This document shows, one piece after another, positions 10,462 to 31,384 of a stretch of DNA of 32,000 nt (the stretch's first letter is position 1; each line of letters begins with the position of its first letter). The stretch spans positions 780,001-812,000 of the forward strand of contig OZ245922.1 of NCBI GenBank assembly GCA_965229705.1, written 5' to 3'. This DNA is from Candidatus Saccharimonadota bacterium (GTDB lineage: Bacteria; Patescibacteriota; Gracilibacteria; BD1-5; UBA6164). A program made the translations under genes and the position numbers. The notes under the pieces were generated by a model. It was given only the letters and a program-made list of their open reading frames with translations, ran no database searches and had not been told where the DNA came from.

Positions 10462-10701
10462 CTAAAATGATATATTGTTTGTTTCCATCAGTTTCTGTAC
10501 TCGGGGAGAAAACTGTACTCCATGAGAAACATATTTTTTCACTTTTTCTACATCTTTTACCTTAAACTCTTTTGTGAATGGATTAAAGTATCCGAGAACT
10601 TCTTTGTAGCCGTGTTTTGCAGCTCTTGTATGTTCTGTAAGAACGAGTCGGTAAAAGGGAGTATTCTTTTTTCCAGATCGTGAAAGTCGTATTTTTAACA
10701 T
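10462..10701 (-). CDS. rpsP: 30S ribosomal protein S16
   Basis: MLKIRLSRSGKKNTPFYRLVLTEHTRAAKHGYKEVLGYFNP is an intact ORF even under the standard code. Confidence 0.93.
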   Translation of the reverse strand: MLKIRLSRSGKKNTPFYRLVLTEHTRAAKHGYKEVLGYFNPFTKEFKVKDVEKVKKYVSHGVQFSPRVQKLMETNNISF

Positions 10702-10771
10702 AAGTAATATATAAATAATAATCTTTTTTATTGTTTGTTGTTCAAATATTTCAAGTTTTCAGAGAGGAGAA

Positions 10772-10856
10772 TGGTGCCCAGACCGGGAATCGAACCCGGA
10801 CTCCCGAAGGAACAAGATTTTAAGTCTTGCGTGTCTACCAATTCCACCATCTGGGC
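10772..10856 (-). tRNA. tRNA-Leu (anticodon TAA), CCA encoded
   Basis: The reverse complement begins gcccagatggtggaattggtagacacgcaagacTTAAaatcttg. It folds with acceptor GCCCAGA/TCTGGGC, anticodon loop CT-TAA-AA, a long variable arm, T-arm CCGGGTTCGATTCCCGG, and a terminal ACCA. Confidence 0.9.
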
Positions 10857-10880
10857 TCACGAGAATCTCAAAAAATGCTC

Positions 10881-11078
10881 TTATATCACTCCTTTTTTCT
10901 TCAATGTCTTCAATCCCTTTGCACTTACTCGTATTCTATATACTAGCCCCGTAAGAGGATCAGTAATATTTTTATAAAAGAGATTTGGATAAAACTTTCT
11001 CTTCGTAGCCCTCATAGAATGACTTCTATTGTTTCCTGTTGAAGTTCTTTTTCAGGTAACATCACATATTCTTGACAT
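10881..11078 (-). CDS. rpmB: 50S ribosomal protein L28
   Basis: [33 protein letters not shown]...RVSAKGLKTLKKKG. The TGA sits at the conserved Gly of the VTGK motif. The span is 198 nt and ends at TAA 10883-10881. Confidence 0.88.
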
Positions 11079-11110
11079 GCTTGCCTAACTTAAAGTGTAA
11101 AATGTATTTG

Positions 11111-11431
11111 TTATGCTTTTATCTCGACTCCTACCCCACTTGGTATAGATACTCCTTGAAGCATTTCCAAAGTCTTTGCTGTAGGATCTTGTATCTCTAC
11201 CAGTCTTTTATGTCTTCGAATCTCAAACTGTTCTCGAGCATCTTTATGGATGAAAGTAGATCTATTTACTGTTATTTTTTCGACTTTTGTTGGAAGAGGA
11301 ATAGGACCTACAACATGTGCTCATGAATCACGAGCAATTCCAACAATTTTTGCTACAGCATCATCTAAAAGACGATGATCAAATGCTTTTATACTGATTC
11401 GTATCTTTTGTTCTCCTTTTTTTGCAGCCAT
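11111..11431 (-). CDS. rpsJ: 30S ribosomal protein S10
   Basis: [58 protein letters not shown]...HKDAREQFEIRRHKRLVEI. The TGA at 11323-11321 aligns with a conserved Gly. Stop is TAA 11113-11111. Confidence 0.92.
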
Positions 11432-11512
11432 AGAGGGCGAAAAATAAATAATAATAAAATATCGTTTCATTACTTTTCTCAAGGTTTCTTGAGAAAAGTG
11501 TATCAAATGATA

Positions 11513-12709
11513 TTAGGCAAGAATTTTTGCTACAACTCCTGAGCCAACGGTTCTTCCACCTTCACGAATCGCAAATCTGAGACCTTCGTCCATTGCGATA
11601 GGTACTTGAAGATCAACAGTCATTTGGATATTGTCTCCAGGCATAACCATTTCAACTCCTGCAGGAAGCTCAATATCTCCAGTAACATCTGTTGTTCGGA
11701 AGTAAAATTGTGGCTTGTATCCTTTAAAGAATGGAGTATGACGACCACCCTCATCTTTTGTGAGAACATATACTTCACACTCAAATTTTGTATGTGGAGT
11801 AATAGAACCTGGTTTTGCAAGTACTTGTCCTCTTTCTACATCATCTCTTTCTACACCTCGGAGAAGCAGACCTGCATTATCCCCAGCTTCACCTCTTTCA
11901 AGTTGTTTATGGAACATTTCTACTCCCGTACATGTTGTTTTACTTGTTTCTTTTACTCCAACGATCTCAATCTCATCACCAACAGTGATAACTCATTGTT
12001 CAATTTTCCCTGTTACTACCGTTCATCGTCCTTTGATAGAGAATACATCCTCAACTGGCATGAGGAAAGATTTATCAAGGTCTCTCTTCGGAACTGGAAC
12101 AAATTCTTCAATAGCCTTAAAGAGTTCTACAATAGTTTTTGCTCCCCACTCTTTATCCATATCAGTAGGATTTTCAAGTGCAACCAGACCAGATCCTCGA
12201 ATAACTGGAGTATCATCTCCTGGAAAATCATATTTTGAGAGTAACTCACGAATTTCCATTTCAACAAGGTCGAGCATTTCAGCATCATCAACCATGTCAC
12301 ACTTATTGAGGAATACCACAATATATGGAACACCTACCTGTCTTGAGAGCAGGATATGTTCTCGAGTTTGTGCCATTGGTCCGTCAGTTGCAGCACAAAT
12401 AAGAATAGCTGCATCCATCTGAGCCGCACCAGTAATCATGTTTTTTACATAATCGGCATGTCCTGGACAATCTACATGAGCGTAGTGTCGTGACTCTGTT
12501 TCATATTCAACATGTGAAGTATTGATCGTAATACCTCGCTCTCTCTCTTCTGGAGCGTTATCAATAGAAGCAAAATCTCTTACTCCTTCACCACCTCCAT
12601 AAAGAGCGTTAAGTACAGCTGAAATACCAGCTGTTGTCGTTGTTTTCCCATGGTCTACATGACCAATGGTACCAATGTTCATGTGTGCCTTAGATCTATC
12701 AAAAGCCAT
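11513..12709 (-). CDS. tuf: Elongation factor Tu (398 aa)
   Basis: [17 protein letters not shown] and NKCD motifs are present. The two track fragments (12023-12709 and 11513-11917) are bridged by TGA codons at 12025-12023 and 11995-11993, both at invariant Gly positions. The span is 1197 nt and ends at TAA. Confidence 0.97.
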
Positions 12710-12865: not shown

Positions 12866-13075
12866 CTATATTTTGTTAGGATGTATTCCGTATTTTTTGA
12901 GCTTTGCAAAAACTACTGTAAGAGCGTTTTTGAGCCATTTTGTTTCTCCCTCAAACTTTAGGCGTTCTTGGAGTTTTTTGTAGTGGGAAATTGCTTTTCC
13001 TACTTTTGACCCTGTAATAGGACCTTTTTTGTTTACCGAATAATTCAGTCTTCTTGGTCTCTTATTTGCTGGCAT
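12866..13075 (-). CDS. Small basic protein of unknown function (69 aa)
   Basis: Intact ORF MPANKRPRRLNYSVNKKGPITGSKVGKAISHYKKLQERLKFEG... with an AAGG upstream of the ATG. No family is recognised. A 28-codon basic ORF (12778-12864, MPRLTGHAHRKLRRALRIIEKKVKKARS) starts one nt after its TAG stop, but I cannot support that ORF on its own. Confidence 0.45.
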   Translation of the reverse strand: MPANKRPRRLNYSVNKKGPITGSKVGKAISHYKKLQERLKFEGETKWLKNALTVVFAKLKKYGIHPNKI

Positions 13076-13625: not shown

Positions 13626-14567
13626 TTATAATTCCTTCAAATTCCCAATAATCTGGTCTATATCTGTATATCATTTTTTTTCTATATATTCATAAAACTC
13701 TTTTTGGATTCTCTGAAAACACTGGGTATCTTCTTTTCCAAGAACCGTCCCAAGTTGTACGAGAGAAGCTCCTGCTAAAAGATGTTCAAATACATCTACT
13801 CCATTTTTAATTCCTCCACAACCGATAATCTTCATTTTATCCCCCAAGAGTTTGTAAAACATGCGCACATTCGCGAGTGCTACGGGTTTGATATAGTCTC
13901 CTCCAAGTCCTCCAAGTCAACCTTTTGGTTTTATAAGAGGAGACTCTGTTTTTGGATCAATAATCAGCGTATTTCACACTGAGTTTATGCAAGTGATAAA
14001 TGAGATGGAATATTTTTTAAGTATGTCTGCCATCATTTGTGTATGCACTGGATCAAAGTAAGGAGGAAGCTTCAGCCCTATAGGCTTATTACCGGAAATT
14101 GCAAATATCTTTGTGAGAAGTTCATCGGAAGCTTCAAAGTCATAGGCTATCTGTGGTTTTCACACAACATTTGGACATGAGAGGTTGACTTCAAGCACAT
14201 CAACATAGTGGTCGTCTTGAAAATCTTGTACCAGTTGTAAAAAATCCTCATGACAAAATCCTACTATCGAAGCAATAATTGGTTTATGGGGAAATTGCTG
14301 TTTCAGCTCTGCAGCATATTCTCTATATTTCTGATAGCCATGATTGGCAAGACCGATGGAGTTGATACTCCCAAGTTCTACCTCCTTGTATCGAGGTTCA
14401 GGATTTCCTTCTCTTGGTTCTGGAGAGCAAGATTTCATCATAATAGCAGAAGACGATGAGTCTCAAAGGGCTTGGAGTTCTTCAAGAGTTGTACAGCGGG
14501 GACCAGATGAGTTATAAATTATATCTGGAAAGATGATGTTTCCGATGGTTTGAGTAAAAGTTTGCAT
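13626..14567 (-). CDS. pyrD: Dihydroorotate dehydrogenase, class 1 type (313 aa)
   Basis: ATG 14567-14565 gives MQTFTQTIGNIIFPDIIYNSSGPRCTT. Further motifs are SINSIGLANHG, EVNLSCPNV and GGLGGLGGDYIKPVALANV. The frame was checked for 13626-14162. The apparent TGA stop at 13673-13671 is read through (EKK-G-YTDIDQIIGNLKEL) to TAA 13628-13626. Confidence 0.9.
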
Positions 14568-14668
14568 AGTTGTCAGTTATTTATAAAGCTCAGCGTGAGT
14601 TTTTATGTCGATGAGTTACATTTTTTTAAAAATAAATAAATGCTCGTGCATAATCAGTAAAAAATTAT

Positions 14669-14839
14669 TTAATTCAATGTTTCTATTTCTAAAGTTGGAA
14701 CTACCATATACTCGATGTTTGATGTACTTATACCATACTCTTCTGACAAAATAGTTTCAATTTCTTCACACTGTATATTATTTTCTAAATTAACTATTTT
14801 GACTTTGCAGTCAGTAAAATCTAAAATAACTATCTTCAT
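14669..14839 (-). CDS. Small acidic protein of unknown function (56 aa), immediately downstream of the DpnI-like gene
   Basis: ATG 14839-14837 to TAA 14671-14669 gives MKIVILDFTDCKVKIVNLENNIQCEEIETILSEEYGISTSNIEYMVVPTLEIETLN. It begins 18 nt after the DpnI stop and has no recognisable family. Confidence 0.4.
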   Translation of the reverse strand: MKIVILDFTDCKVKIVNLENNIQCEEIETILSEEYGISTSNIEYMVVPTLEIETLN

Positions 14840-14857
14840 ATTATTATTTTCAAACGG

Positions 14858-15631
14858 TTAAAAAACTCTATACTTACCTCTTTCCAAAAATTCTAAATAT
14901 CACTTATCTCTTAATCTTTGTAACTGCTGTCTAATCTTATCTTTTACAAAATTATTACTTGGATATCTATCTTTTAACTCATTTTCAAACTTATAAATAT
15001 CTTGAAGAATAAATTCTTTTTTATCCAATCTTTCAATACATTTCATTATATCAAAAATCCATCATTTTGATTCTTGTTTTTCTTTTTCTAAAAACTTTAT
15101 TCTCTCCCATTCATGTAAAACTTCAGTTTTTGTCTTGTAATATCAATCTTTTATATAGTGTATTTTTCAACTTTCAGGAATTTTGTCAAACATAATATTT
15201 CATCAAGTCCATAGTCTTGTCTTTCAATTTTTCTGCTTCACTTTTGAAGTGTTTCTTTTTTGAATAATTTCAGGTATAAAAAAATATTTAGGTACTACTA
15301 AAAAGTTTTTAATTGTGTAATCTTCTGAGTATTTTAATACAAATAAATGCATAGGATCCTTTGTCATCTGTTTTATCATAATATCATATGCTCATCAAGG
15401 AATAGTTTTTCATAAACTTCCTTTTGAACTTTTTAACTCAAAGTTATCTTTACAGTCTCTACAAAACAAGTCATTTACAGGTTTATCTATTTCGTGTTGA
15501 ATTAGAGCACTTCAACAAGCAGGACAAAAGATATTGTTTGCCGTCCAATACTCTGTTAATATTTTTATTGCCTGTGTTCATCATATTTTTTTTCAATCAG
15601 CAATAGGATGATTTTGTGATAGATAAGGCAT
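14858..15631 (-). CDS. DpnI-family methyl-directed type IIM restriction endonuclease (257 aa)
   Basis: With TGA = Gly the product reads MPYLSQNHPIADGKKIGGTQAIKILTEYWTANNIFCPACGSALIQHEIDKPVNDLFCRDCKDNFELKSSKG...GGAYDIMIKQM...KNFLVVPKYFFIPEIIQKR...KGWIFDIMKCIERLDKKEFILQDIYKFENELKDRYPSNNFVKDKIRQQLQRLRDKGYLEFLERGKYRVF. This is colinear with S. pneumoniae DpnI as I recall it: CPNCG...DFYCNHCSEEFELKSKKG...DGAYATMM, and the C-terminal winged helix KEKIRQQLQILRDK...GRGKYR. Confidence 0.85.
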
Positions 15632-15821
15632 ATATTTTATTGATTATGTTTGTTATTATTATTTATTTCAACAGTATATAGAATCACATCATAAATGTAT
15701 ACCTCCTTAGTATACTCCTAACAATGATTTTTCAAACTCAATAAAATACCATAAACACCTTGTATTTTCCGCTGACAAAAATACACTTGCAACAAGTATA
15801 TTCTCTCACTCCCTCACTCTT

Positions 15822-16748
15822 ATGAAATTTCCTCACAAAAACATCCTCCATACAAAACAATTTTCCAGAAGAGATATAGAACTCATCTGCAATACTGCAA
15901 AAGAAATGGAGAAAATACTCTTATGAGAGAAGTCAGGTCAGTTACTCAACTGAAAAATAATGGCTTCTCTTTTTTATGAACCATCAACCCGAACACGGCT
16001 CAGTTTTGAAACAGCTATGAAACGACTCTGAGGAGAAGTTATCAGCGTCAGTGATAGTACATGAACCAGTCTCTCAAAAGGCGAGTCGCTCGAAGATAAC
16101 GCACTCATTAACTCGATGTATAGTGATATACTCGTTATGCGTCATAGCGAAGCAAGAAGCGTGATGAGAAGCGCTGAAGTAGCAACGGTCCCAGTGATCA
16201 ATGCAGGCGATGGTGCAAATCAGCACCCTACACAAGCACTTCTTGATGTGTACACCATACTGAAAGAAAAAAGAACTCTTGATAACCTTCATATAGTATT
16301 TGTATGAGATCTCAAATACGGACGAACAACCCACTCGCTCGTATTTCTCATGGGGCTATTTAAAAATATCTCATTTACCTTTATATCTCCCGAAGAACTC
16401 AAAATGCCAAAGAAAGTAAGAGATTTTGTAAATGAAAAAAATATTCCCTACAGCGAAACTGATAGCTATAAAGAAGGAATACAAGATGCTGATGTGCTTT
16501 ATGTTACAAGAGTACAAAGAGAAAGATTTACAGATATGAGTGAGTATGACCGCCTGAAAGATGATTTCATCCTCACGCTAGATATTCTCAAAAATGCAAA
16601 AAAAGATATCAGTATCCTTCACCCTCTCCCGAGGGTCAATGAAGTAGATTACCAAGTTGATGAGCTACCAAATGCTGCATTTTTTCGACAAGCATGCAAT
16701 GGTGTTCCTATACGAATGGCGCTCTTATACCTCCTCTTGAAAGACTAA
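15822..16748 (+). CDS. pyrB: Aspartate carbamoyltransferase catalytic subunit (308 aa)
   Basis: Motifs EPSTRTRLSFE, HPTQALLD, GDLKYGRT and HPLPRVNE are present. The span is 927 nt and ends at TAA 16746-16748. Confidence 0.93.
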
Positions 16749-17768: not shown

Positions 17769-19181
17769 TTATACTCTCATACTCTTAACCAGACTCTCCC
17801 ACTCATTTTTTGGTTTTGGAGATATCTGTGCTCCCTCTGGAAGACGAGGAAGAGTTCATCTCTCTGCCTTGGGAGTTTCATCATCCCAAAAAAGCTCAAA
17901 AGCCTCTGGGGTATAACAAGAAATGAGCGGAACACCCTCAAACTCATTTTTTCCATACCTATTTCCAACACAAACAATTGCCACGACTTCACCACCCTGA
18001 GACTCTACAAGTTGTTTCATTTTCTTGAGTGTTGATCATTTTGTTACTATATCTTCATCAATAATCACCTTTTTTCACGCCAGAGAAATATCATGACGCT
18101 TGAGAGACATATCATCCCCTTCTTTTTCTGTATATACTGATTCTTCTACAGAGAGTTTTTCTGCAAGCATGAGAGAGAGTCTCACACTTCACATTTGTGC
18201 TCACATAACTAGATCTGCCTCTATTTTCTTTTCCTGTAAGAGACTCGCAAGTTCTCGACAAGCTCTTTCTACAACAGCATAATTTCTCTCTATAGTTCAA
18301 ATATTGATGTAAGCATTACTCAAAGTACCACTTGCAAGACGACAGTATTTTCCTCATTCTGGACGAAAATAAAATACTCCAATATACGAAAGAAGTTCTT
18401 TCCATGTTCCCGTATATAATAATCGCTCAAATTCGTATTTTTTCTGATTTCCACGATACCTTGCATGGCTCACTTCATCAAAAAATCTTTCTACCTGCCT
18501 CTGCATATCTTCTGCCTCTAAAATAGGTCTCCCCATTACTATATCCGTCGAACCATTTTTTAGCGTTTCTGCTGGAGTCAAGACTCGTTGCTGATCATGT
18601 GTATCTTCTCACACAAATCGTACTCCAGGATTTACGATGATCATATCTTCTCCGTATACTTCTCTGAGAACCTCAACTTCAAGAGGGGAACATACGATTC
18701 CATCGGCTCCTGCGTCGAGAGCTATTTTTGCAAGTTTGAGTACTGCATGTTTCGCGCTTTCATCAAACACATTTTGCACCTCCTGCTCTCAGAGAGATGT
18801 GAGCGCTGTAACTGCTAAAATCTTCGTTGTAAGTCAGAGCTTATTTCTTGCTGCAACTCCGGCGCGAATCGCCTCTCACCCACTACTGGCATGAAGCGTC
18901 ACATACTCCGTATCTGCTCAAAGTCATGAGTCTGAAAGTTGCTGAAAGTTATTTACAAGAGTATTCGGGATATCATGCCATTTTGGATCAAGCATCAGTC
19001 TCACACCTGTCCCTTCTATCATATTTTTTATTCCCTCAAGTCCTTTCAAAGTCAGAAGATCATTCACCTTGAATAATATGTTCTCCATATAATTCGTACA
19101 TGTTTGTGAGACTTTTGAAATAATATTCTGAGCCTCTCTCGGTCATAAATTATCTAGGGCAATAATCAGTTTATGTTTCAT
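17769..19181 (-). CDS. pyrFE: Bifunctional OMP decarboxylase / orotate phosphoribosyltransferase fusion (PyrF-PyrE order, 470 aa)
   Basis: ATG 19181-19179 gives MKHKLIIALDNL. PyrF motifs KVNDLL, LDPKWHDIPNT, NPGVRF and IVMGRPI follow. The same frame then continues without any stop through ...EVSHARYRGNQKKYEFERLL... into a PyrE domain (CRLASGTLSNAYINIG, GKKVIIDEDIVTKGSTLKK PRPP-binding loop) and ends at TAA 17771-17769. The span is 1413 nt. Confidence 0.85.
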
Positions 19182-19278: not shown

Positions 19279-21666
19279 CTATAGAGAAAAAGGTATTTGA
19301 ATATCTTTTTTATGTTCCGTAAAAATACTCTTTCCTTCAAGTGCTTGTATATCTCAAATATGCAGTTTTCCCAGATAGAGATCCTCGATGGATCATCCGT
19401 TCAAAATATACTCTTCTACGGCATGATATCCATTCACATACACCACATCTTTCATACATGCTCCATCTTTACTCGGATCTTCAAAACCTCTCTTTACGCG
19501 AAGCATATAACGAAATACTTTTTCATAATCATGATGATAATACTCTGCAAGATGAGATATAAATTTTTTATATGAATGCTTGAGACCATAATAGAGAAAA
19601 TAATACCTCTCATAGAGTGAATAGTATTTTGCATCTTCCGAAGAAAGAAACCTATTTTGGTTATAAATAGCAATTCCTTCATCTGTTTCAATATAATAGG
19701 CTCCTCCTTTATGCATAATAGAGAGATCACTTTTTTTTCCATTAAGTTTTCTGAGATAATGCCCCTCTATCTCATGAGCAATAACTGCGCGTATCTCTTT
19801 TTTTCCAACCTTTGCGTCTTCTCTCATAATGAGTGTATCTCCTTTCATGGTAAAACGAGCTGGTATATCTCAGGACTTAAGGCGTATTTTTGTGTGATAG
19901 ATATGTGCAAATTTTTTGAGATACTCTTGAACATCTGCAAAAGATAAAAAGTCTTTTTCTGGAACTATATGATGTCTTGCTGCGATACGTTCTTTGGAAG
20001 TGAGAAAATACTCATCATGAATTTTCCCAAATATTTTTTCGCTATAGAGAGTCATATCTGCCGTATTTTGTTCCTGAAACGCGATAAAAAACTGGAGTTT
20101 GTAGAACATTTCCTCTTTTTTTCTTGCATATATTTCACTATAGGGAATATCTGGCACTTGTATTTTTTCGAGTTCTGCGAGTGTTTTTCGAGGATCAAAA
20201 GAGAGTTCGTTGTATTCAAAACGAGGAATATAATCTCCTTTTTTTTCTATAAATATATGTTTTTCTGTGGCAATATTCACGGGACGAATATACTTGAGTA
20301 TTAGCAGTTTTTTCTCAATATTCATCAGTTTTTTATCCAAATCTTGTAGTTGTTTTGTATACACTCAAACGATAGCTGTATTTTTACTTTTGCCGATTTC
20401 TAGCTCGGTAATTCTTGGTCATTCTGATTTCTTGTATTTAAAAGGATCAATGAGAAATCCCTTCAGAGCATTTCTTCATAAGACGATTTTTTCTTCTCCG
20501 AGATGGTCTATCTTGAAAGAAATATGTTTTTCTACTGCGAGAAGTTCTCCGTCGAGTTTGATACGCGTTTTTTCTCCAAAAGGGATTTTGAGTACTTCTG
20601 ATAAAAATTTTCTATCTATAAAACTCTCTGTTTCTGAAAGTCTCAATGAAGCAATATACTGATGTTCTCTATCATTATGAAAAATCTTAAAATACTCTTT
20701 TGTTCCTACTATCTTCTTTCATGAGATTTGTTCTATTCGACCTTCTAGTTCTCCAGAAAACAGATCTCTCCCAAGTCGCACTCCCTTCTCAACACTATTC
20801 ACCTCAATACCCGCAACTTTCTCAAGTCTGACTTTGAGTGGAGCATGATTGACATTTTGTATTTCAAGCCCTGGTCTCACATTGATTTCTAAAAGAAGTG
20901 GTCAGAGATCCTTATCAAGCACCACATCACATCACAAAAATACTATTCCTGTTGATTTTTGTACGGTTACGGCAAGTGAGAGTATTTTTTCCCACTGAGG
21001 AATGACAATTCCCCGAATATCTCAAATACCTGGTATAGAGTGTATGGTTTCGCCTCTGTGAGAAATAAAAGTGATTTTTCACGAGCCAATATCAATACCT
21101 GCGGCGCAGGCTCCTGCGTGTAGGTTTGCTTTTCCATCAGAGGCTTTGGTGGGAATACGGATCATTGCCATCACCGGAACCATATTATAGGAAACGATTC
21201 TGATATCGGGAAGTCCATAGCTTCACAAGAGGTCTATTTCTTCGGAGAGGATAATCTTTTTTTCTATGATGACCTTATCTTTTTTCCCTGAAAGAGAAAA
21301 AAATCCATCAATAATAAACTCTAAATGACGCTGAAAATCTTTTAAAGAAAATACTTCTCCTGAAGAGCTAACAAAACTTCCATCAGCTAAAGAACTATCA
21401 ATAATCAAAATTCCTTTTCAGCCATACCCGTTATTTGGTTTTACCACAAAGGGGGGTACAAGCTGTGATAGAGCCTCTTGTGAGATATCGGTTTCTCTAG
21501 AAAATATACACAAGGTCTCTGGAACTGAGACTCCTTGAGAGAGGAGGTATTTTTTGGTAGCAAGTTTTGAGTCAGCTATCTTTTTTGCCGCAAGAAAGTC
21601 TTCTCCCTTAATATAGAGAAGATTTCGAGCATTTTGCCCGAGAATACCTTTTCGAGAAAAAAACAT
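19279..21666 (-). CDS. Fusion protein (795 aa): RimK-related ATP-grasp (alpha-L-glutamate ligase-like) domain, a ~150-aa middle domain, and a DUF1704 / MATCAP-like HExxxH metallo-carboxypeptidase domain
   Basis: ATG 21666-21664 starts the N-terminal part MFFSRKGILGQNARNLLYIKG...VVKPNNGYG-G-KGILII...DIRIVSYNMVPVMAMIRIPT...ANLHAGA...LEINVRPGL, which has ATP-grasp motifs. The C-terminal part reads IRAVIAHEIEGHYLRK (HExxxH at 19776-19759)...YIETDEGIAIYNQ (QEGLA-like)...KDVVYVNGY. Track ORFs 21418-21711, 21223-21408, 19870-20364 and 19393-19848 share one frame. I walked codons 21222-20365 and found only TGA interruptions. Stop is TAG 19281-19279. Confidence 0.8.
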
Positions 21667-21667
21667 A

Positions 21668-22579
21668 TTAAGAAGGATTGCGAATATACTTTCGAGATGA
21701 GACAAAACCACTGAGAGCTCCTATAGAGAGGAAGATACATGCCTCCAGTATAAAGATGAGAAGCATATTTCCCTCATAAATTCCCGAGAGTGATGAGGCT
21801 CCGAGTATGAGCTGGAGATTAGAAAGAAAGAGCAGATACAAGAGTGTCGCTGCGATAAATGCTGCTAGTACATATATACATCATTGCAGAGCAAAAGGTC
21901 CATAGATAAACATTTTACTCCCTCATACCAGTCGAGTGATATATATCTCGTCTCGGTAATGATAAATAAAGTTTCCAATAATAGAGTAGATAATAATAGA
22001 TATTGATAACAAAAATGTGAGAATGATGATATAGAGACCTCCTTGCAAGATATGTAACACCGATATGACTTTGTCTATTCGTTCAAATTGGCGAGTATAA
22101 CTCGAGAAGTGCTCTTGTTTTTCTGTTTGGAAATCTCATTCTGATAAAATAAAGAGTTTGTTTTCTATGATCTTGTTGAGACTTTCATAGTCACTGAGAG
22201 GAATGTCTTCTATACTGATTGTTTCTGGAAGTGGATTTTGCCTCTCTAGTATTTGTACCAGATCTGGGTCTCGCTGCCGAAGCTCTTCGAGAAGTTCTTC
22301 TTTGGTCTTGTAAGTCACGCGTATACTTGGATGTGCTGCTGCAATATCTTCTTGAAGGTCAATGACTTCTAGAGAGTTTTGGTCATACTGTTCATCGAGG
22401 TACAGAGAGAGTGTGAGTCTCTCTCCAACACTTTCTATAATACGAACACTGACATTGTGTAAGAGCAGGAGTACATGAATAAAAAATATAAGCAGGGCAA
22501 TAATACACACAGAAGAAACACTCAAAAATGTATTACTCGCAATATTTTTAAAAGCGTAGCGTATGAGCCGATACATCAT
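21668..22579 (-). CDS. ftsX: Cell division permease FtsX-like protein (303 aa)
   Basis: MMYRLIRYAFKNIASNTFLSVSSVCIIALLIFFI forms TM1. It is followed by a periplasmic-like domain (LYLDEQYDQNS...ELLEELRQRDPDLVQILERQNPLPETISI) and three C-terminal TM segments ending ...GALSGFVSSRKYIRNPS. Stop is TAA 21670-21668. No ftsE is adjacent. Confidence 0.8.
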
Positions 22580-22731
22580 AGTCTTTTTCTGTGAATGAAA
22601 TATTTGGTATATTCTAATTTTTTGTAGAAAATTCGCAATTTAAAAAATGCAAATAGTCAAGGTATATATTTTGTCTTTTCATACAATAATATGATAGCAT
22701 AGAAGAGAATTTATTTTTTATACATATTTTT

Positions 22732-25017
22732 ATGGCACTTGAAACACTTCGAAACATTACACAATGAGGAATTGATACGACAGAACTCTCAAGAATTGAC
22801 GATATTCGACAAGAACTTGAAGATCTCGATGAGCCAGAAAAAACCGAGGCGATTCGTATTCTCGATGAGGCAATAGACTCTGCTGACGCAGACGTACGAG
22901 ACAACCTACAACTTCTCAAAGCTTCTCTTGAGGGAAACGCGATAGATATTTCTGATCATTTTACAGACGAAGCATCTGTGAGAAAAGCTCTAGAACTTCT
23001 TGAGTTAGATGGAGTCGAAATTATTGGTGGTCATCTTGTATGAATTGATAGTATTTCTATATCTGATAAGATGAAGAAACTCGAAACATTTATGGATCTT
23101 GCAAACTATATCGATGATCAAAACGCAAATGTCGATGGAAAAATACAAAGACTTCTCACGCTCATGAATCCTGAAACAGAATTTATAGAAGAACGACGCT
23201 TCCTCGCCTATGAGTATATGATGTCTCTTTATGGAGATGCACTTGAAAGATGAGTTCAGTTCATTTTCGATAATAATACCCAATCATATACCCTTGAAGC
23301 TCCTCAAGGTGTAGATACATCAGAGTTTGACTCTCTTCTCAGTATAGATACTCAGTATATCGACTTTGCGAAACTCAACTATATTATCTCTCGCAATAAC
23401 GCTCTTGAAGAGTCTATTGTCGATCGAGAATCATATACACTTTTTCTGATGGAAAACAATGCAAATATTCGATCTATCATGCAAAGTTTATGAATAGAAG
23501 ATATTGATGGGTCGAGCTGACTTCTTGCTCAAAGAGAAAGTGTTATTATACAATTACAAAGTATAATAGATACCTGAAATCTCGATCAAAAATCACGAGA
23601 ATATCTCGAAGTACAATGGCTCTATGAGTACCTTGCTTACGAACGCTATGAGTCACATTTTGAGGATAAAGATCTTTTTAGAAATATCAGTGCCTATAAT
23701 ACTGTTTTTGCTGAAAAAGAGAGTTTTATAGAAGCCGTAGATATGCAGTGAATAGATCTTGATAACTTTGATCCCAATGCTGATAAACCAGCATGGTATA
23801 GAGCAATGAAAGAGTTTGGTTTTAAAGGACTCATTATGGGAGTACTTCTCGCAATATTTTGAAGAGGACAACTACGAACATGATGATTTGCAGCTATTGC
23901 CGGTATTCTTGGAGCTGATGCAATACTCGAGTTTACTGATACCGCAACTGGAAATGATGTGAAGCGTGATGCTTTTGAAAAATTCGACGCTAAAAAAGTC
24001 ATCCCCCCAATAAATTATGGATCACTTGATCACCTTAAATACTCTCCAACACTTACACAGCTTACCAATGCTATGGAAGTGAAGAGAACAGCATGAGTAC
24101 AGTCCTTGAGTAATATTAAGACTGCTGCTATTTTTCAACAAGTTTTAGCAAATAATAATCTTTTACAAACAAATATTACTAATGTTTGACCAGCAGAACT
24201 CACTACCATGTATGCAAGTATAGGAAATACTAGTATCGATAATCAAACATTTTGACAGCCAATTCCATGAAGTGAACATGGTGAGATTACGCAAAATGAT
24301 TTTGATATCTTTCTCGGAGTACTTGAGTCTATACAAGATGATTCAGATATCACTCTCAATGATGCTTTACAAGTAAATAATGAGGTCGATCTCCAGCTGA
24401 GTTATCCAAATAATCCTGCAGATGCTCAAGAATTTACGAGGTTTGCATGAGATTTAGAAGCAAAACTCACAGAGATAGATACAAAGATCTCTGAAGCCAC
24501 AGAAAAAGATGCTCTCAAAAATACAATACTCACAAATTTTCATAACTGGTTTACTCAGAGTTATATCCCAAGTATGAATATCTCCTCTGCCAAGAATTTT
24601 TATCTCCTCCCAGAAGCATTTTACACTCCTATGGATAATGGTTCTATCGCTGAATGATATGACCGTATAAATGAAGCATTTTACAATGCTATTTATGAAG
24701 AGCGTTTTCATACAAGCATATTAAGTGCCGTAAAAGATAGTGATATAGACCTTATACAAGCAGCGAACGACCCAAGAATCAACAAGCAAATACAAAGTAT
24801 ACGTAGCCTACTCAATGGTAATTGACAAGCACAGGTGCAAAGTAGTACTATACAGGATATCTTTAACAACGATGCATCAACTCTTCATGATCTCTTAGAG
24901 GCAGTACATAGTATGACAGATAGCGCACATCAATCTGGTCTCAGTCCTCAAATACAGTCTATGCTCCGAGGAATAGATGCAGGTCTTGTAGGTGCAAGTT
25001 TAACACTAATACCGTAA
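22732..25017 (+). CDS. Large acidic protein A of unknown function (761 aa) with a central Gly-rich hydrophobic hairpin
   Basis: The ATG 22732 to TAA 25015-25017 span is 2286 nt. Every codon was walked: no TAA/TAG and 17 in-frame TGA. An upstream in-frame TAA lies at 22687. The hydrophobic hairpin is GFKGLIMGVLLAIFGRGQLRTGGFAAIAGILGADAIL (23818-23928). I recognise no catalytic or family motif. Confidence 0.8.
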
Positions 25018-25021
25018 AACC

Positions 25022-27205
25022 ATGGCTCCAGGTAATAATATAAATATTGGTCCTCAACTGGATCAGTCTATAAGTACTCCATCAAGTTCTACGGACTATT
25101 GAGCGCTCAATACAAAGATACAAGCGCTCCCACAAGGTCATCCCGCTCTACTGTCTTGGCAAGAACATGTTGTACCTCTCAGTACGAGCATAGCATCTCT
25201 GAGTCAACAAACTCGAAATGAACTCGAAAAAAACTTTGGTGTGATTTCCGCTCATATAGATGCTGGGAAGTATGGTGATGCGATATTTATGATTGAACAA
25301 ATACAAAATCTTCACGATAAGTTTACTCAGGCTCAAGACCTGATTAGTGCATCAACTCATACAAGAGAGGCTCTTACACAATGAGATGATATATATAGAG
25401 TAGATCGAAACAGAGACGGAACTATCACTCAAAACGAGCTTGATTTTCATAGAAGAAGATTTGAAGATACCAACTTTGTCTGATGAGTCTCTCTTGCAGA
25501 GTTCAATAGAGAGGTTTCTGCTCTCGCTGAAGATGTCGCACAAAATAATCCAAACATCACAGCTCAGGAGTATCAGGCCTATCTGCAAGCACTCTTTTGA
25601 GAGCAGGGGATAGATATAGTAAATAGAGAAGAAAGTGAGGTAAATGCTATTATCAGAGAGTCACTCACTCAAACAGAAGATCTCCTAAACAATGAATACA
25701 ATACAATATTTCAACAAACTACTGGACCATATGAGATAACTTTTTGAAGTCAGTTAGACATATGAGACTTTGACTTTACGGGGGATTTTCCAGAAGGGAA
25801 TCTCACTTTTGAAACTCAAGGCGAAGCCCTCGAATTTCTGCTCTTTATGAAAGAAACTCTCAACAATATGGAGCCAGGGAGCTGGATCCGAATGTGGGCA
25901 CATATGACTGAATGGTATCGCTGGTGAGCATCAGGTCTCACATCAGAGGCAGGTCGTGAAGGAGTTCAAAGTGCAGGGATAGGAATAGCAGCTCTCTTTG
26001 CAGTATATTTTTTGAAAATGGCTGGAGTTGCTATATGGTCATCTCTGCGATGAGACTCTGGAAACTCATCAGACTCCTGATCTTCTCGAGCTAGGCGTTG
26101 AACACGCTGAGACACATCAGGAGAAAGTACTTCTTCTCAGTGACCAAGTGAGAGATGATGATCAGCTGAAATGCGAGAAACCTTCCGTAATGATAGCCGT
26201 ATACTAAACGATATTTTTACTCGAAATGGTATAGAGCACCCTATGAGTCTTACATCAGATGAGTTTGATAGAATATCTGCAAGTCAAAACGCTTCTGATA
26301 TAGCCCTTAATAATACTATTCGTGAGTGATTACAGGCAAGAAGTTTCCCATGAGGACAAGCCCTTCATAACATTCTGCGTCTAGAGAGACCATCACTCAC
26401 ATGATCTCTTATTGATAATCATCGTCGAATTACCAATATATTTGCCTACATTGATAGTATCGACTGGAACAGTCTTCCTGACAATGCCCACCGCCCTACA
26501 AAAGCAGATTTTATGAGAGAAATCTCTACAAGAGTCTTCACAGAAAATGGAAAACCAAGAACCATCAGCATATGAAAATCCCTTTATAATGATATCACAG
26601 GACGAATGATCAATCTTGGTATTACCAATAGTGAAGGTATCGCGTCTCTTAAGAACAATATCAATGGAAACCCTACTCAGTTTACACCTGCTAATGATAC
26701 TCCTGCAGTAGCTTCTGTCGATGAATGAAGGACGACAGATTGATCGTCTGGATGACCATCAGAAAGAGTGTCAACAAGTAGTGAAAAAGAAGCAATGAAA
26801 ACCTATGGTTATAGTATCGTTGATAGAGTAAGACTTGAAGCGTTCTTGATTGATCCTGAAAGTATCAATACCCTCAGTAAGATACAAGTACGATCTATGA
26901 TAGATGACATTGTAAGAGATATGCCTGTGGATGAGCTCACTCAGGAAGCAGTAAGAGGAAAACTATTTCAGCGCTTAGGAGAATTTCAACCAGGTATGGA
27001 AATCCATTCTCTTAAAAGCATAAACGAACTAGGAGAAATATTTAACAGCATACTTTTGAGTCTCCCTGAAGAAGAGAGAAACACACTCATCAACTCTCGA
27101 GAATGAAGAGCTTTCGGTGAAGTATGAAACCTAGATGACTTCAGATTTGACAAGCATAAAATATATTTAAGAAGACTTTTCAGAGCTGCGTCTCGAGCAA
27201 TATAA
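25022..27205 (+). CDS. Large protein B of unknown function (727 aa) with an EF-hand-like loop, a hydrophobic hairpin and Ser/Gly/Arg-rich linkers
   Basis: The ATG at 25022 lies 4 nt after the gene A stop. The span is 2184 nt, ends at TAA 27203-27205, and was walked codon by codon with no TAA/TAG. It carries DRNRDGTITQNE at 25403-25438 and the hydrophobic segment GVQSAGIGIAALFAVYFLKMAGVAIWSSL at 25961-26047. Confidence 0.8.
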
Positions 27206-27215
27206 GATAAGCATT

Positions 27216-29357
27216 ATGTGTAGCGGTATAGAACACCTTTATGAAAACTCTCCTGAGTCAAAAAGCGAGAGTTTTATATGATTTGAGAGCTCCAGCTTTG
27301 AGTTTTTTCAGCAAGAGCTCGAGACAGGTCTCTATCATTACTATAGTCAATATTATATCAGTGAGATTCCTACGTGATCAGCGGAAAAACTACTTTGAGA
27401 TCTCAAAGCTCGGATAAGTACACAGTATAATAACTATGAAGTAGATGATGTGAAACCCGAACATTTTGCTGGTTTTTCTATACTCTCAGGTCTTTTAGTG
27501 GTTCAAGATACATGAGGTGTAGAGTATACCTATGACTTTAATATTGATGGAAAACTGCGATTTCTCTGATATGCTCCTCATGATATTCTTTGTGAGCGAA
27601 GAGATGTTATACGAGAACAGACTGAAGGTCTTGAAACAGTATTAAATGCGATGGATGAAGTATTTCAAAAAAATGAAAGAGAGTGGTTTGATAGGCTCGG
27701 AGAAAATGATATCTACAGTTGAGATTTGAAAGTACAAAGTATTGAGGGAGAGTCTCTCAAACTCCAATGAAAAAATATTATAGAGCTCTATAATCTTGCC
27801 CGAGAACATCTTCTCGCATTGCGTCTTGCTCGGTCAAGTATTCAGTGATGAGATCCCGTAGATATCAAAATGTATCATGTGGAAAAAAGATTTGCAGATA
27901 TGGCGCTTGGAATATGAGATGTATATGAAGGCTGAGCAAAACTTTTTGATCTCAGTCCCGATGAACTCAACTATCTCGTATCTCGTCAGATTGAGTCATT
28001 TGTTGACAATGATGATTTGCTATCATTTCTCTCTTCTCAGCATGAAAAAATGTACAGAAACACTCATAGGTCTGAGAGTGTTAATACAGCAAATACCATC
28101 TATTCTCAGGCTATACACAATGCTATATATCAACGCTTTACAAAGCAGTTAGAAATATCGGAGACAAATGGAGATATACAAAATCATGAAAAAATACAGT
28201 CCTCTTTTCTCAGACTTATAAAAATCATCACAGGAAGAGAGTGAAATGTATTGAAAATCCTGCATAATCCTGATCTTGCAGCGCATATAAGCTCCTATCT
28301 ACTTACTCGTCCATGAGGAATCATAGAAAGACTCAATGAGCATAATAACACTGATATTCTCCAAGAAGATCCTGAGATGAATGGAAGAACACCGAACCAA
28401 ACAATAGACAGATTTATTTCTGTGTGTCAAAAACGATTGTTTGAGTGAGAAACAAAAAAGTCAGTAAAAATATTCATCGCTGTAAAATACGGTATCCCTA
28501 TGAAGCTCCTCTCATGAGCAAATGATCTATGAGATTATTGAGAACTCAGTTTTCAAGAGAAATGATATGTCTCCCTAATGGAAAGAATGGCTGATCGATT
28601 GTCCACGCAAAAAAAGCTCTGATACACATACAGTTTTGAAAAGTTTGATGCTCTACTGCGAGATATCTCACAGGAAACTCAAAATGATCTGCGAAAATAT
28701 CTCAGTCGTGAATTTGATTCAAAGTTCTTTGATTGGAATGGTTTTTGAAGTGATGACTTACTCAATATCTCATGAGAGTCTGGACAACCACTTTTTTCTC
28801 AAGCTGATGGAGAACTCCTTGATCTATTTAATGATATTGAGTGAAATGGCTTGTTTGATTTTTCTGATGTGACAAATAGCTATATATATGAGTGAACTAA
28901 AATCGCTATTATTATTTGAGCTGCTGTTGTCCTATTTGTCGCAACATGATGAACATGAGCGGCTCTTGTTTGATGAAGTATTATCGCGCAGTGAGCGGTC
29001 GTATGAGCTTGAGCTACAATGGCTTCTTGGGCTACCCATCCTCTATGACATGACACACATCTTGAAATGCTAACGGATTTGTGATCTGATCTTGCTATCT
29101 GAACGGCTTTGTGAGCATGATGATGAGCACTAGGAAAACTCGCAATAGGCTGAGCAGGTATTACTTCTGTAAATGGTTTTAAAACAGCGGCTCGAAACTT
29201 TTCTTTTATTCAAGCACCTGATTTGACGAGTGGTATTGCGATAGAAATGTTTGCAAGATATCCCACAATATCACGTATTTTCCATGCTTGAGAGATTATT
29301 ACATGAAATGATGAGTTTGAACTGACAGATATAGAAAAACTTCCTGATTTTTCATAG
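27216..29357 (+). CDS. Large protein C of unknown function (713 aa) with a C-terminal glycine-zipper membrane region
   Basis: The ATG at 27216 lies 10 nt after the gene B stop. The span is 2142 nt, ends at TAG 29355-29357, and was walked codon by codon. The C-terminal region reads GTKIAIIIGAAVVLFVATGGTGAALVGGSIIAQGAVVGAGATMASWATHPLGHD...LGSDLAIGTALGAGGGALGKLAIGGAGI. Eighteen of its glycines are TGA-encoded. Confidence 0.8.
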
Positions 29358-29434
29358 TATAAAAGAGCTTATTTTTTGTCAGAAAACAAAAAGTATGATA
29401 TCCTCAAAGTATATAATATTTTTTTATTATCACT

Positions 29435-31384
29435 ATGACAGCACCAAAACTCGAGACACTTGTCTCTCCATGAACACCAGAGACTCCTGAAACCATGAGT
29501 CCTGACCCGATGAGTGATGAAGCAGTAAACAAGCAACTTTTACGAATAGGTATTTCTCCTGAAAATCTTGATGCTGATATGAGGGAAAGGTTTCGTGAAG
29601 CTCTCACGCTCTATACCACCTCTCCTGATAGTAACCTCGCACTTCTCGAAGAACGTGTTGGACAAGGATTTACAACAGAAGATGAAAAAGTCGTAGAGCT
29701 CACTCGCTGGATAAACGAACATCATCCTGATTGAGGGACTTCTCAAGGTATACAGTGAGAGTTTGAACAGCTCTGAACCATCTTTCAGTGAGGAATATTT
29801 TCTCATATTCAAAACTTTTTTTCTGATACATTCAAAAATATATTTTCGTCATTTTCTACCGGAAATGAAGCTCAAGATCAAGCTGTTGAATGAATTTTTT
29901 GAAGAATTTTTAAAGGAATTTTTGGATTTGATGTGTCAGCCACTGATGAAACTCAGCCCGAAGATAATAAGACGTGAGAAGAAGGAATATGACAAGAGAG
30001 ATGATCAGAGACCAGCATCGAAACTGCTGAAAATCTCACTATATCACCCGAAGTCATTCCACCTCATATACAATGATTTTATAATACTGGACTGCGAACT
30101 ATTCTCTTTCTTGGTGGGTATGAGTGAGGAAATGTTGGTGAGAGTGAAACATTTTTAAAAAATTATTTTTATACTGAAAATCTCGCTCTTACAGACATGT
30201 CAGCTCTCGAAGTCTCTGAAAGTCAAAACGAAACAACTCAAGAGGTATGAGAAAGTATGTATGAAGCATTTGAGCATCAAAGGGTTCGTGATATTCTTTC
30301 TGTGAGTCTTTCATCTGAAAACCTCAAAAATATTATCAAACCTGCAGGAATGACAAATACCATACTTGCATCTAAAATGTGAATCGATACAGAGTCTGGT
30401 ATACAACGTTTAGAAGAAATATATGAAATATCACAAAAAAACGGTTTTGACTACCGAGAGCTCCCTATTCATGAAATATCTCTTTTATATGCTTTTTCGG
30501 CGCTTTGACCTGCTGCAGGGCTCAGTGAGACTCTCGCATGATGGGTATGAAACAGCGAATCATCTATAAATGAAGATGAGATTATCACGGCTCTTGCTAA
30601 TAGTACCTACATAGACAACGACTTGAGCCGAGCTTTTTTAGAAACTGAAATAGCTCAAGGATGAAGATGACTTCTTGAATCCAGTGAAGATGCAAGAGTC
30701 AAAGAACTTCTGATAGAGTATTTACAGCAAGAACAACTCAGTCAAGATCACCCAGCATTTCAGCAGATAGAGGAACTGATTTCATATAAAGATTTTGTAT
30801 TAGAAGATCTGATAGAACAAGATATTTTTCAGCTCAATGAAGAAGAAAAAACTGCTATAAAGCAAGGTCTCAATTATGGGAAAATCACACTTCTCTATGA
30901 GTCTCTTCATGGAAAAAAAGAAGTATGAGATGCGCAAATATTTAGTATCATTGCTCTTTTTGCCTCTATTTTACGATCACAAATAAATAATGAGGCAGCA
31001 ACAGAGTATTTTTGAAGATTTAGCAATATTAACTCTGCGTCAAATGTATTTACTGATAACCAGATACAGCTCATCTCCGCATATACAGAGTCTGTAAGTT
31101 TAGAGGCTTGGTCTCTACTTATCGATCAGGCTTTTGGGTGAGCGCGCATGATAAATGGCTATGTACAATGAGCAACGGGAGTTGACTCTACTATTGTTGG
31201 TGCTGGTTTAATGGGTAGTGCTGTTGCCTTATGAAGCGCGACAACAACGAGAAATTTTCAATGACAATTAGTTCCTAGGGCGTGAATATTGCCATCCGCC
31301 ATTCGAACAATAGCGCGTAAGGCATGATGAGTATGACTCGTACTTATAGGCCTTGATGCAATCACATACGCATCAGAGGAATAA
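29435..31384 (+). CDS. Large protein D of unknown function (649 aa) with C-terminal Gly/Ala-rich hydrophobic segments
   Basis: The ATG 29435 to TAA 31382-31384 span is 1950 nt and was walked codon by codon. An upstream in-frame TAA lies at 29414. The C-terminal segments are GATGVDSTIVGAGLMGSAVALGSA (31169-31240) and AGGVGLVLIGLDAITYA (31322-31372). Confidence 0.78.

Follow-up and report, generated by a model that had tools for sequence, protein, structure and literature searches.

Introduction

Among the described systems closest to the gene examined here is RimK/RimB, in which RimK adds glutamates to ribosomal protein S6 at its C-terminus and makes poly-alpha-glutamate, and RimB, a retropepsin-like endopeptidase, removes the S6 glutamates and separately stimulates RimK (PMC11957791). 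The two also occur as an active hybrid protein (RimBK; DP2392 of Desulfotalea psychrophila), for which protease activity has been shown (PMC11957791). In Pseudomonas aeruginosa, loss of the three secreted RloA retropepsins leads to cell-shape, hypo-osmotic and beta-lactam defects, and these can be suppressed by deleting either rloB, which encodes a seven-transmembrane (7TM) protein, or rloC, which encodes an ATP-grasp protein (PMC11957051). Another relevant group comprises the MATCAP (TMCP1-2) enzymes, metallocarboxypeptidases that take C-terminal Tyr and Glu off acidic tubulin tails (PMC10499314). The present analysis concerns a 32,000-nucleotide stretch of DNA (contig OZ245922.1, positions 780,001 to 812,000; hereafter the window) and a gene on its reverse strand, at 19279-21666, whose product almost certainly combines in one chain a RimK/RloC-type ligase and a zinc carboxypeptidase of the MATCAP type that looks intact, with a retropepsin-like domain between them that is catalytically dead.

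The fusion protein parallels each of these systems in part. RimK/RimB resembles it in pairing an ATP-grasp alpha-L-glutamate ligase with a trimming retropepsin-like protease, all in the cytoplasm and with a writer-eraser logic (PMC11957791), but the ligase of the fusion belongs to the TIGR02291/RloC subfamily, its retropepsin domain lacks the catalytic DTG motif, a MATCAP domain has been added, and its gene is linked to a membrane-protein gene rather than to that of S6. The RimBK hybrid likewise carries a retropepsin-like and an ATP-grasp domain on one chain, yet the order is RimB-RimK rather than ligase-retropepsin-MATCAP, the retropepsin is active, the ligase is of another subfamily, and there is no metallopeptidase. 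RloABC, the osmotic-stress and cell-shape operon of P. aeruginosa, has an ATP-grasp protein of the same subfamily as the fusion, and relatives of the fusion keep an RloB-like 7TM gene upstream; the genetic antagonism of protease and ligase in that operon (PMC11957051) can be counted as a further likeness. However, RloA is secreted and active, whereas the retropepsin-like domain of the fusion is cytoplasmic, joined to a MATCAP domain and dead, and the partner encoded in the window is FtsX rather than RloB. In addition, the 7TM partners found in the candidate phyla radiation (CPR) have PKD domains and a C-terminal Glu-Glu (EE) tail that canonical RloB lacks.

Similar parallels and departures are seen with other systems. 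In the eukaryotic pairing of TTL/TTLL ligases with MATCAP (TMCP1/2), acidic tails receive Tyr or Glu from ATP-grasp enzymes and lose them again to gluzincins of the MATCAP family (PMC10499314). These peptidases have the same fold and HExxxH...E site as the C-terminal domain of the fusion, but they and the ligases are separate eukaryotic proteins acting on tubulin, whereas the fusion is a single chain, encoded by a bacterium from which no tubulin is known. FtsEX is matched insofar as the gene upstream of the fusion encodes a full-length FtsX-family protein with an extracellular domain, although no ftsE lies alongside it in any locus, the FtsX scores fall below NCBI cut-offs, and the coupled downstream neighbor is a ligase-peptidase fusion. 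Finally, certain proteobacterial operons place a QEGLA (TIGR02421) gene of the MATCAP family next to a GshB-like ATP-grasp ligase gene, but that ligase is glutathione-synthetase-like, the genes are separate, an N-formylglutamate-amidohydrolase-family (FGase) gene is included, and no retropepsin is present. Genes of Photobacterium damselae that are induced at low salinity include one with the QEGLA motif (RS17025), the adjoining 'glutathione synthase GshB' gene (RS17020) and rimK, the last by 52-fold (PMC10308900), which hints that ligase/MATCAP-family pairs in Proteobacteria respond to osmotic conditions.

Domain architecture of the fusion protein

The ATP-grasp amino-acid ligase domain occupies residues 5-288 (20803-21654, reverse strand) and is of the RloC/TIGR02291 type. 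Its membership in Pfam family PF14397 (ATPgrasp_ST) is evident from a match over residues 29-284 (E 8.9e-55; 186.3 bits, cut-off 31.4), and the best model for the region is NCBIfam TIGR02291 (alpha-L-glutamate ligase-like), which scores 235.1 bits over residues 5-288. Models of the RimK family are missed, with 33.6 bits against a required 143.4 for TIGR00768 and 14.4 against 331 for PRK10446. An earlier reading of the window, made by a model from the DNA letters without database searches (hereafter the sequence-only reading), had called this domain a RimK-like ATP-grasp; the ATP-grasp part of that assignment stands on the PF14397 match, whereas RimK proper has to be given up in favor of the RloC/TIGR02291 type. 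Five residues, K76 in VVKPNNGYGGKG and D247, E260, N262 and R264 around LEINVRPG, are invariant in 32 family sequences of only 45-60% identity. From general knowledge of ATP-grasp enzymes, we take these to be nucleotide- and Mg-binding positions (the Lys of the KP..G.G loop and the D...E.N triad). The name that Pfam gives to PF14397, 'sugar-transfer associated', is unsupported here, with no glycosyltransferase gene nearby.

Further evidence comes from a relative in an alphaproteobacterial locus (L034), where an RloB-like gene is followed by a gene for a 323-aa ATP-grasp protein that is 37% identical to the N-terminal domain of the fusion and passes the TIGR02291 cut-off with 413 bits. Because this RloB-adjacent ligase passes TIGR02291, and because relatives of the fusion keep an RloB-like 7TM partner, the N-terminal domain can be assigned to the RloC type and the family regarded as a compacted relative of Rlo. 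Structural comparisons relied on a model of P0052, a homologue that has been decoded correctly and shares 53% identity with the window protein. Its mean predicted local distance difference test (pLDDT) score is 77.6 and its predicted template modeling (pTM) score is 0.50; pLDDT is mostly above 90 in the MATCAP part, about 77-89 in the middle domain and about 70-88 in the ATP-grasp part, and confidence is low for the first 34 residues and for a linker (265-309). When this model was compared with the Protein Data Bank (PDB) using Foldseek, the ATP-grasp part matched RimK (5zct, E 7.5e-9), followed by ArgX/LysX and D-Ala-D-Ala ligases.

At the other end of the chain, residues 444-777 (19336-20337, reverse strand) form a zinc carboxypeptidase domain of the MATCAP/DUF1704 (QEGLA) family. 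The match to Pfam PF08014 (MATCAP) over residues 472-777 places it in that family (E 4.3e-27; 95.5 bits, cut-off 27), and TIGR02421 (QEGLA) is the best NCBIfam model for the region, with 118 bits over residues 444-777. A phmmer search aligned the domain with human MATCAP (7z5g, E 2.4e-6), pairing HEIEGHYLR with HEIGTHYLR, TDEGIA with TEEGLA, RVKRG with RAKRG and KDVVYVNG with KDQVYLDG (window protein given first in each case). MATCAP 7z5g also ranks first among the PDB matches of the P0052 model (E 1.1e-11, TM score normalized to the target 0.62). The zinc-binding and catalytic HExxxH motif is HEIEGH (residues 631-636, at 19759-19776), in which H631, E632 and H636 are invariant in the 32 members, and the counterpart of the QEGLA motif is TDEGIA (residues 661-666, at 19669-19686), in which the likewise invariant E663 is presumed to be the third zinc ligand. 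Canonical QEGLA is present in the relatives at loci L029 and L032. Since the active-site residues of both the ligase and the peptidase are invariant across the 32 sequences, the two outer enzymes look catalytically competent.

Between them lies a retropepsin-like domain of the RimB/PF05618 type (residues 319-408; 20443-20712, reverse strand) that is catalytically degenerate. PF05618 was absent from a direct Pfam scan of 12 family members, even at E values up to 10, and a 12-member profile of residues 305-425 produced only noise when compared with PDB sequences. The identity of the domain came instead via relatives that have a recognizable PF05618 domain at exactly the same position. This Pfam family, formerly 'putative ATP-dependent zinc protease', now goes under the name RimB-like. 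When 1.84 billion representatives were searched exhaustively with a profile, the relatives retrieved included proteins of 420-500 aa, aligned over profile positions 1-410, as well as longer ones. One of these relatives, P0207, consists of ATPgrasp_ST, PF05618 with an intact DTG (38.1 bits, above the cut-off) and MATCAP, and P0216 (34.7 bits), P0220 and P0230 likewise pass the PF05618 cut-off. When the middle region of the Gracilibacteria proteins was compared with the PF05618 domains of these relatives using hhalign, the match probability was 97.9% (E 3.4e-13), or 95.4% (E 1.8e-8) with both sides trimmed to the domain proper. The middle region is beta-rich in the P0052 model, and a Foldseek search of viral structures (BFVD) matched it to aspartic proteases, among them a phage protein named 'putative acid protease' (E 1.8e-4; TM 0.61 across 127 residues), and to an 'ATP-dependant zinc protease' (E 0.015).

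Column alignment with the relatives reveals what has happened to the catalytic motif. Where the relatives have AK(I/V)DTGA, the window protein has ASLRLSE, so that R342-L343-S344 (20635-20643, reverse strand) replaces the catalytic D-T-G. The D-T/S-G motif is missing from all 12 aligned Gracilibacteria members and has been lost in 42 of the 49 representatives that are at least 700 aa long and have a detected middle domain. Of 55 shorter representatives, mostly ATP-grasp plus retropepsin proteins, 27 retain it, although some of these 'short' representatives are fragments or truncations made with genetic code 11, and the contrast is indicative only. In the fusion family, one eraser (the dead retropepsin) has apparently been replaced by another (the metallopeptidase).

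All three domain assignments in the sequence-only reading hold when profiles are applied to the individual segments. It had proposed a DUF1704 domain with AHEIEGH and TDEGIAIY, which PF08014, the human MATCAP alignment and Foldseek all support, and the ATP-grasp domain is supported directly as well. Its tentative comparison of the middle region with a RimB-type protease, without DTG, proved correct by way of the relatives, given the hhalign match and the R-L-S at the DTG columns. The motifs that it quoted are all in place, including GILGQNARNLLYI (residues 7-19), KPNNGYGGKGI (within 74-86) and LEINVRPGL (within 257-267) in the ATP-grasp part and KIVLGRNALKGFLIDP around residues 395-408.

A few relatives show other variations on this architecture. 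P0220 combines ATPgrasp_ST with an active retropepsin domain and a second, different ATP-grasp domain, and P0230 may resemble it, though Pfam found no second ATP-grasp domain there. The MATCAP-like domain of P0207 has HEIVH (HExxH) in place of the expected HExxxH. At locus L001, a second, standalone MATCAP-like paralogue of 528 aa (10459-12045 of that locus), with HEIETH and EREEGVA, lies directly downstream of the fusion gene, and wider spacing between the fusion gene and tuf in L014 and L020-L022 suggests that such a paralogue may be present there too.

Reading frame and genetic code

On the reverse strand, the gene runs from an ATG at 21666 to a TAG stop at 19279-19281 and contains 795 sense codons, 13 of which are in-frame TGA codons read as Gly under genetic code 25. 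Just as the sequence-only reading had described it, this is a single frame broken only by TGA, with no TAA or TAG inside; by our own estimate, the chance of 795 codons without TAA or TAG at 36% GC is about 1e-18. An assembly error that hides a genuine TAA or TAG between the domains, which that reading had considered as a way in which it might be wrong, was checked against the homologues. Because all 120 listed homologues cover about 95-100% of the length and include both domains, sequence comparison excludes an assembly or frameshift artifact.

Three observations bear on the decoding of TGA. When four homologues whose deposited translations use code 25 are taken as the reference, Gly columns of the alignment (for example GYG-G-KG and DL-G-PLLLEIN) coincide with nine of the 13 TGA codons, with Gly in all four homologues at each such column except one, where three of the four have it; the other four codons are in variable columns. 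Among 27 homologues that evidently were translated with TGA as Trp, the sum of Trp and Gly is about 60-67, though Trp alone varies from 12 to 52. Also, the deposited form of the window's own protein (P0001) has Trp at all 13 TGA positions. Taken together, this evidence indicates that the window derives from a code-25 bacterium belonging to the Gracilibacteria in the broad sense.

Database copies of the fusion family (P0002-P0120) mostly have been mistranslated in the same way, with 12-52 Trp per approximately 795 aa compared to one or two if decoded correctly. Their glycine-rich loops read GYGWKG and similar, and their profile scores are degraded. Such mistranslation could conceal the fusion family from annotation pipelines.

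Distribution of the fusion and its unfused relatives

In the first protein search, all 120 listed matches were about 750-800 aa in length and had both Pfam domains. Among the best 150 representatives of clusters formed at 50% identity, 78 have both the ligase and MATCAP domains, which corresponds to at least 78 clusters. The full-length gene is found in 31 species representatives (one genome per species) labeled Gracilibacteria, Peribacteria or Patescibacteria. The fusion family is already present in databases, but under uninformative names: the few names on listed matches include 'DUF1704 domain-containing protein' and 'alpha-L-glutamate ligase-like protein'.

The same enzymes also occur side by side as separate proteins. 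Loci L038 and L039 have an unfused operon in which stop and start codons overlap; its products are, in order, a PKD plus 7TM_transglut protein (537 aa), an ATP-grasp plus retropepsin protein with an intact DTG (428 aa) and a MATCAP protein (374 aa). A Shinella plasmid carries a MATCAP-family gene flanked by genes for an N-formylglutamate-amidohydrolase-family protein and a GshB-like ATP-grasp protein. Given the fusion clusters, the unfused L038/L039 operon and the Shinella gene pair, the partnership of ligase and MATCAP is a recurring theme of which the fusion is the Rosetta-stone version. The statement in the sequence-only reading that these activities normally reside on separate proteins is borne out by the same unfused operon and by the separate QEGLA and GshB-like genes of Proteobacteria.

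That reading had also asked whether this exact architecture might already be common and characterized. It is indeed common in the clade and already present in databases, but we found it unnamed and unstudied. The literature searched contained no paper on a ligase-MATCAP fusion, none joining DUF1704 with ATP-grasp or MATCAP with RimK, and none joining a 7TM region, an inactive transglutaminase and an ATP-grasp protein. Relative to this literature, the new elements are the architecture of ligase, dead retropepsin and MATCAP; the loss of DTG from most fusions that carry MATCAP, against its retention in roughly half of the shorter proteins; the linkage to ftsX in the absence of a neighboring ftsE; and the EE tail that is invariant among the 7TM partners.

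Linkage to membrane-protein genes

Directly upstream of the fusion gene is a gene of the ftsX family (21668-22579, reverse strand), whose 303-aa product has one transmembrane (TM) segment, an extracellular domain and three further TM segments, and ends ...SSRKYIRNPS. It matches the NCBIfam model FtsX_Gpos along its full length (residues 3-300 against model positions 5-296 of 296; E 4.4e-25), albeit below the 225-bit cut-off. Pfam FtsX_ECD is matched with 23.8 bits (cut-off 23.5), Pfam FtsX also matches, and FtsX chains in the PDB are found with E 7.5e-9. The ftsX stop codon (21668-21670) and the start of the fusion gene are 1 nt apart in the sequence TAAtATG (21664-21670), just as the sequence-only reading had noted, and this junction suggests that the two genes are translationally coupled.

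The linkage which that reading proposed to survey is real and conserved. In searches with tblastn under code 25, 29 of 33 fusion loci had ftsX, in the same orientation, as the immediate upstream neighbor. Among 26 ftsX-linked loci, the gap between the two genes has a median of 7.5 nt, and it is between 0 and 25 nt in 24 of them. No open reading frame (ORF) with both Walker A and LSGGQ motifs, as would be expected for an ftsE-like ABC ATPase, was found in the window and 38 family loci, which total 402 kb. A weak promoter-like hexamer pair upstream of ftsX (22611-22638, reverse strand) matches nine of 12 consensus positions, but such sites are no more common in this region than in shuffled sequence. 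Within the 5' end of the fusion ORF there are two terminator-like sites, whose T-runs are weak.

In contrast to the upstream gene, the downstream neighbor varies: some loci, this window among them, have pyrF-pyrE there, and others have a MATCAP paralogue standing alone or a conserved ORF of 69 aa with tuf after it. The pyrF-pyrE fusion in the window (17769-19181, reverse strand; 470 aa, orotidine monophosphate decarboxylase plus phosphoribosyltransferase) lies directly downstream of the gene, and it occupies this position only in some relatives (for example L004, L009-L012 and L017), so the downstream neighbor has been variable while the upstream ftsX has been retained.

More distant relatives have a different membrane partner. 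The fusion proteins at L029 and L032 share 34% identity with the window protein and are encoded in the standard code. Their genes are preceded by one for a 538-aa PKD plus 7TM_transglut protein, which overlaps the fusion gene or is 9 nt away, and the 7TM part of this protein matches the NCBI RloB model. A PKD plus 7TM_transglut gene also occupies this position at L037 and L038, and a 7TM_transglut gene precedes the one for P0207. The window departs from the RloABC arrangement in this respect, as it has ftsX and no RloB-like 7TM gene in the upstream position.

The C-termini of these 7TM partners might provide a useful hint. They end ...IEEE in L029 and L032, ...VDAD in L037 and ...YLKE in L038. 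All 120 listed homologues of the L029 7TM protein (P0274-P0393; 46-100% identical) end Glu-Glu, with the final tripeptides IEE (86), EEE (25), TEE (5), VEE (3) and LEE (1). Their Trp content is normal, which indicates standard-code genomes as their source. Given seven helices and a PKD region that is N-terminal and extracellular, the C-terminus of these proteins should be cytoplasmic. S6 of E. coli ends ...EE. The acidic encoded C-terminus of S6 that is extended by RimK ends ...DE in P. fluorescens (PMC11957791), and the Glu-Glu tail of the 7TM partners resembles this acidic tail.

Two further ideas about acidic tails were considered and set aside. The C-terminus of FtsX was rejected as an acidic primer because its orthologues all have basic ends of the R(K/R)Y(L/I)K type (for example ...SSRKYLK). 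An acidic tail also is not general to RloB, as the proteins of Legionella (...AKARS) and Aeromonas (...PGKDK) and that of L034 (...GNE) demonstrate.

Possible functions and alternative explanations

The explanation that seems to fit best, and to which we lend cautious preference, is that the fusion is a compacted, cytoplasmic Rim/Rlo-type system in which a single chain serves as writer and eraser for C-terminal glutamylation and acts with a membrane partner. The N-terminal RloC-type ATP-grasp domain would use ATP to attach amino acids, most likely Glu, to a peptide or protein tail at its C-terminal carboxylate. The MATCAP domain would then remove the added residues processively, one by one, which would limit tail length and take over the eraser role from the retropepsin. 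The middle domain, descended from a RimB/RloA retropepsin whose catalytic Asp was lost (such retropepsins being the eraser normally found in Rim/Rlo-type systems), probably has been kept for a non-proteolytic purpose such as tail binding, dimerization or stimulation of the ligase. The enzyme would be made with, and probably work at, the membrane protein encoded just upstream, which is FtsX here and the EE-tailed PKD plus 7TM protein in standard-code relatives, and the physiological output probably would be control of the cell envelope or of division. Reversible writing and erasing on some C-terminus is the more probable component of this proposal, whereas a functional tie between the fusion protein and FtsX should be regarded as tentative and somewhat less likely than not.

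Several observations weigh against this proposal and must be accounted for. Neither outer domain is an equivalog of its best NCBI model, since both the TIGR02291 and the TIGR02421 scores are below the respective equivalog cut-offs of 314.2 and 338.65 bits. Four of the 33 loci (L025, L026, L029 and L032) lack an upstream ftsX. The wider region, with tuf and ribosomal-protein genes, also is syntenic, and the ftsX linkage could thus in part be a matter of inherited order. The FtsX tail is basic rather than acidic (...RKYIRNPS), and the non-acidic tails of canonical RloB limit the EE-tail clue to the PKD plus 7TM subfamily. Finally, the placement of the two active sites relative to each other is uncertain, given that the model is of a homologue, has a pTM of 0.50 and includes weakly predicted linkers.

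Other explanations can be constructed from the same observations. Perhaps the ligase makes, and MATCAP degrades, free poly-alpha-glutamate or short peptides, thereby setting a glutamate or osmolyte pool or an envelope polymer that is handled or exported by the partner. RimK is able to make free poly-alpha-Glu and is stimulated by RimB (PMC11957791), RloA proteases are secreted and cleave polyglutamate, such that their substrate may be free polymer (PMC11957051), and low salinity strongly induces rimK of Photobacterium together with the QEGLA gene and the 'GshB' gene that adjoins it (PMC10308900). Furthermore, the FtsX tail in the window offers no acidic primer. Nevertheless, we consider this explanation unlikely: the EE C-terminus that is invariant in the 120 listed 7TM proteins looks like a protein primer, all enzyme domains here are cytoplasmic and fused, unlike the secreted RloA, and no exporter is encoded nearby besides FtsX or the 7TM protein. 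It is quite improbable that the fusion simply is the RimK/RimB equivalent of this lineage and acts on S6, with the adjacency to ftsX being inherited order that has no functional meaning. S6 is the sole bacterial protein so far known to have C-terminal poly-alpha-glutamylation (PMC11957791), and both the RimK-like homology and the position of the gene upstream of tuf-rpsJ-rpmB-rpsP in most loci would agree with that role. However, the N-terminal domain scores 235 bits with TIGR02291 and only 33.6 bits with the RimK family model, relatives are coupled, often by gene overlap, to membrane proteins and not to ribosomal genes, and the tight spacing to ftsX (0-25 nt in 24 of 26 loci) is maintained while the downstream neighbor varies.

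The fusion protein might also be a non-canonical cytoplasmic partner of an FtsX without a neighboring FtsE, with ATP use by its ATP-grasp domain, or reversible tailing of FtsX or a divisome protein, gating the activation of cell-wall hydrolases that normally is under FtsEX control. The tight and conserved gene pair, the lack of an ABC ATPase gene in 402 kb of loci, the involvement of Rlo phenotypes with cell shape and peptidoglycan-targeting drugs (PMC11957051), and a glucosaminidase-domain gene divergent from ftsX in L001 would all suit this idea. We give it only a small chance of being correct, as ftsE may sit elsewhere in these genomes, of which only the loci were covered, the FtsX tail is not acidic, and two code-25 loci (L025 and L026) have the fusion without an adjacent ftsX, with a divergent coiled-coil gene upstream in its place. 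Very unlikely indeed is an arrangement in which the two enzymes act independently, or in which one domain is a relic, such that there is no write/erase cycle at all. Although the middle domain shows that catalytic decay occurs in this family, and a pTM of 0.50 means that fixed inter-domain geometry is not predicted, 32 sequences of only 45-60% identity all retain the catalytic residues of the two outer domains, and the same pair stays adjacent when unfused (L038/L039).

A bolder scenario can also be outlined, although as a whole it is unlikely. FtsX proteins of Gracilibacteria without an adjacent FtsE would have recruited the fusion as their cytoplasmic partner, and reversible C-terminal tailing of a membrane or divisome protein would gate wall remodeling or division. 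The MATCAP family would have begun as an eraser of bacterial tail codes, and, in the sister lineage, the invariant Glu-Glu tail of the 7TM partner would be the first membrane-protein substrate of polyglutamylation.

To our knowledge, no function has been assigned to the MATCAP/DUF1704 family in bacteria, and we know of RloC-type ligases only through genetics, which connects them with cell shape and with osmotic and beta-lactam tolerance in Pseudomonas. The presence of ligase and MATCAP on one chain, together with the unfused operon, argues that bacterial MATCAP homologues trim the products of ATP-grasp enzymes, and it suggests that writer-eraser pairs may predate the eukaryotic tubulin code. 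In these organisms, whose genomes are very small, the fusion might also be a previously undescribed FtsX regulator. If a membrane or divisome protein is indeed tailed in this manner, the modification would be a bacterial counterpart of the tubulin tyrosination/glutamylation code.

Other features of the region

Several additional genes in the window have an order relative to tuf that is shared with related loci. A gene with CHASE2 and adenylate/guanylate cyclase domains, a FecR-like gene and a gene for a small membrane protein resembling type IV secretion system (T4SS) pilins (5399-8718 and 9712-10140, reverse strand) are arranged as in L001-L004, which indicates that gene order is broadly conserved in the clade. 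Upstream of tuf is the conserved, very basic 69-aa ORF (MPANKRPRRLNYSVNKKG...; 12869-13075, reverse strand), which is 62-81% identical in L001-L004, where it is a called gene, and belongs to no Pfam family.

A restriction endonuclease gene of the DpnI-like (Dam-replacing) family is located between pyrD-like and pyrB-like genes (14858-15631, reverse strand). It falls within the segment with the lowest GC content of the window (0.306 at 14001-16000), and it probably is a horizontally acquired insertion in the pyrimidine-biosynthesis cluster.

Divergent from ftsX, four large ORFs of 761, 727, 713 and 649 aa follow one another on the forward strand (22732-31384). The 649-aa ORF (29435-31384) encodes the only protein of the window that ends EE (...ASEE), and it was considered as a substrate of the fusion protein but dropped, its homologues being itself and one weak match. 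None of the four ORFs has a Pfam match, and each contains hydrophobic hairpin-like segments.

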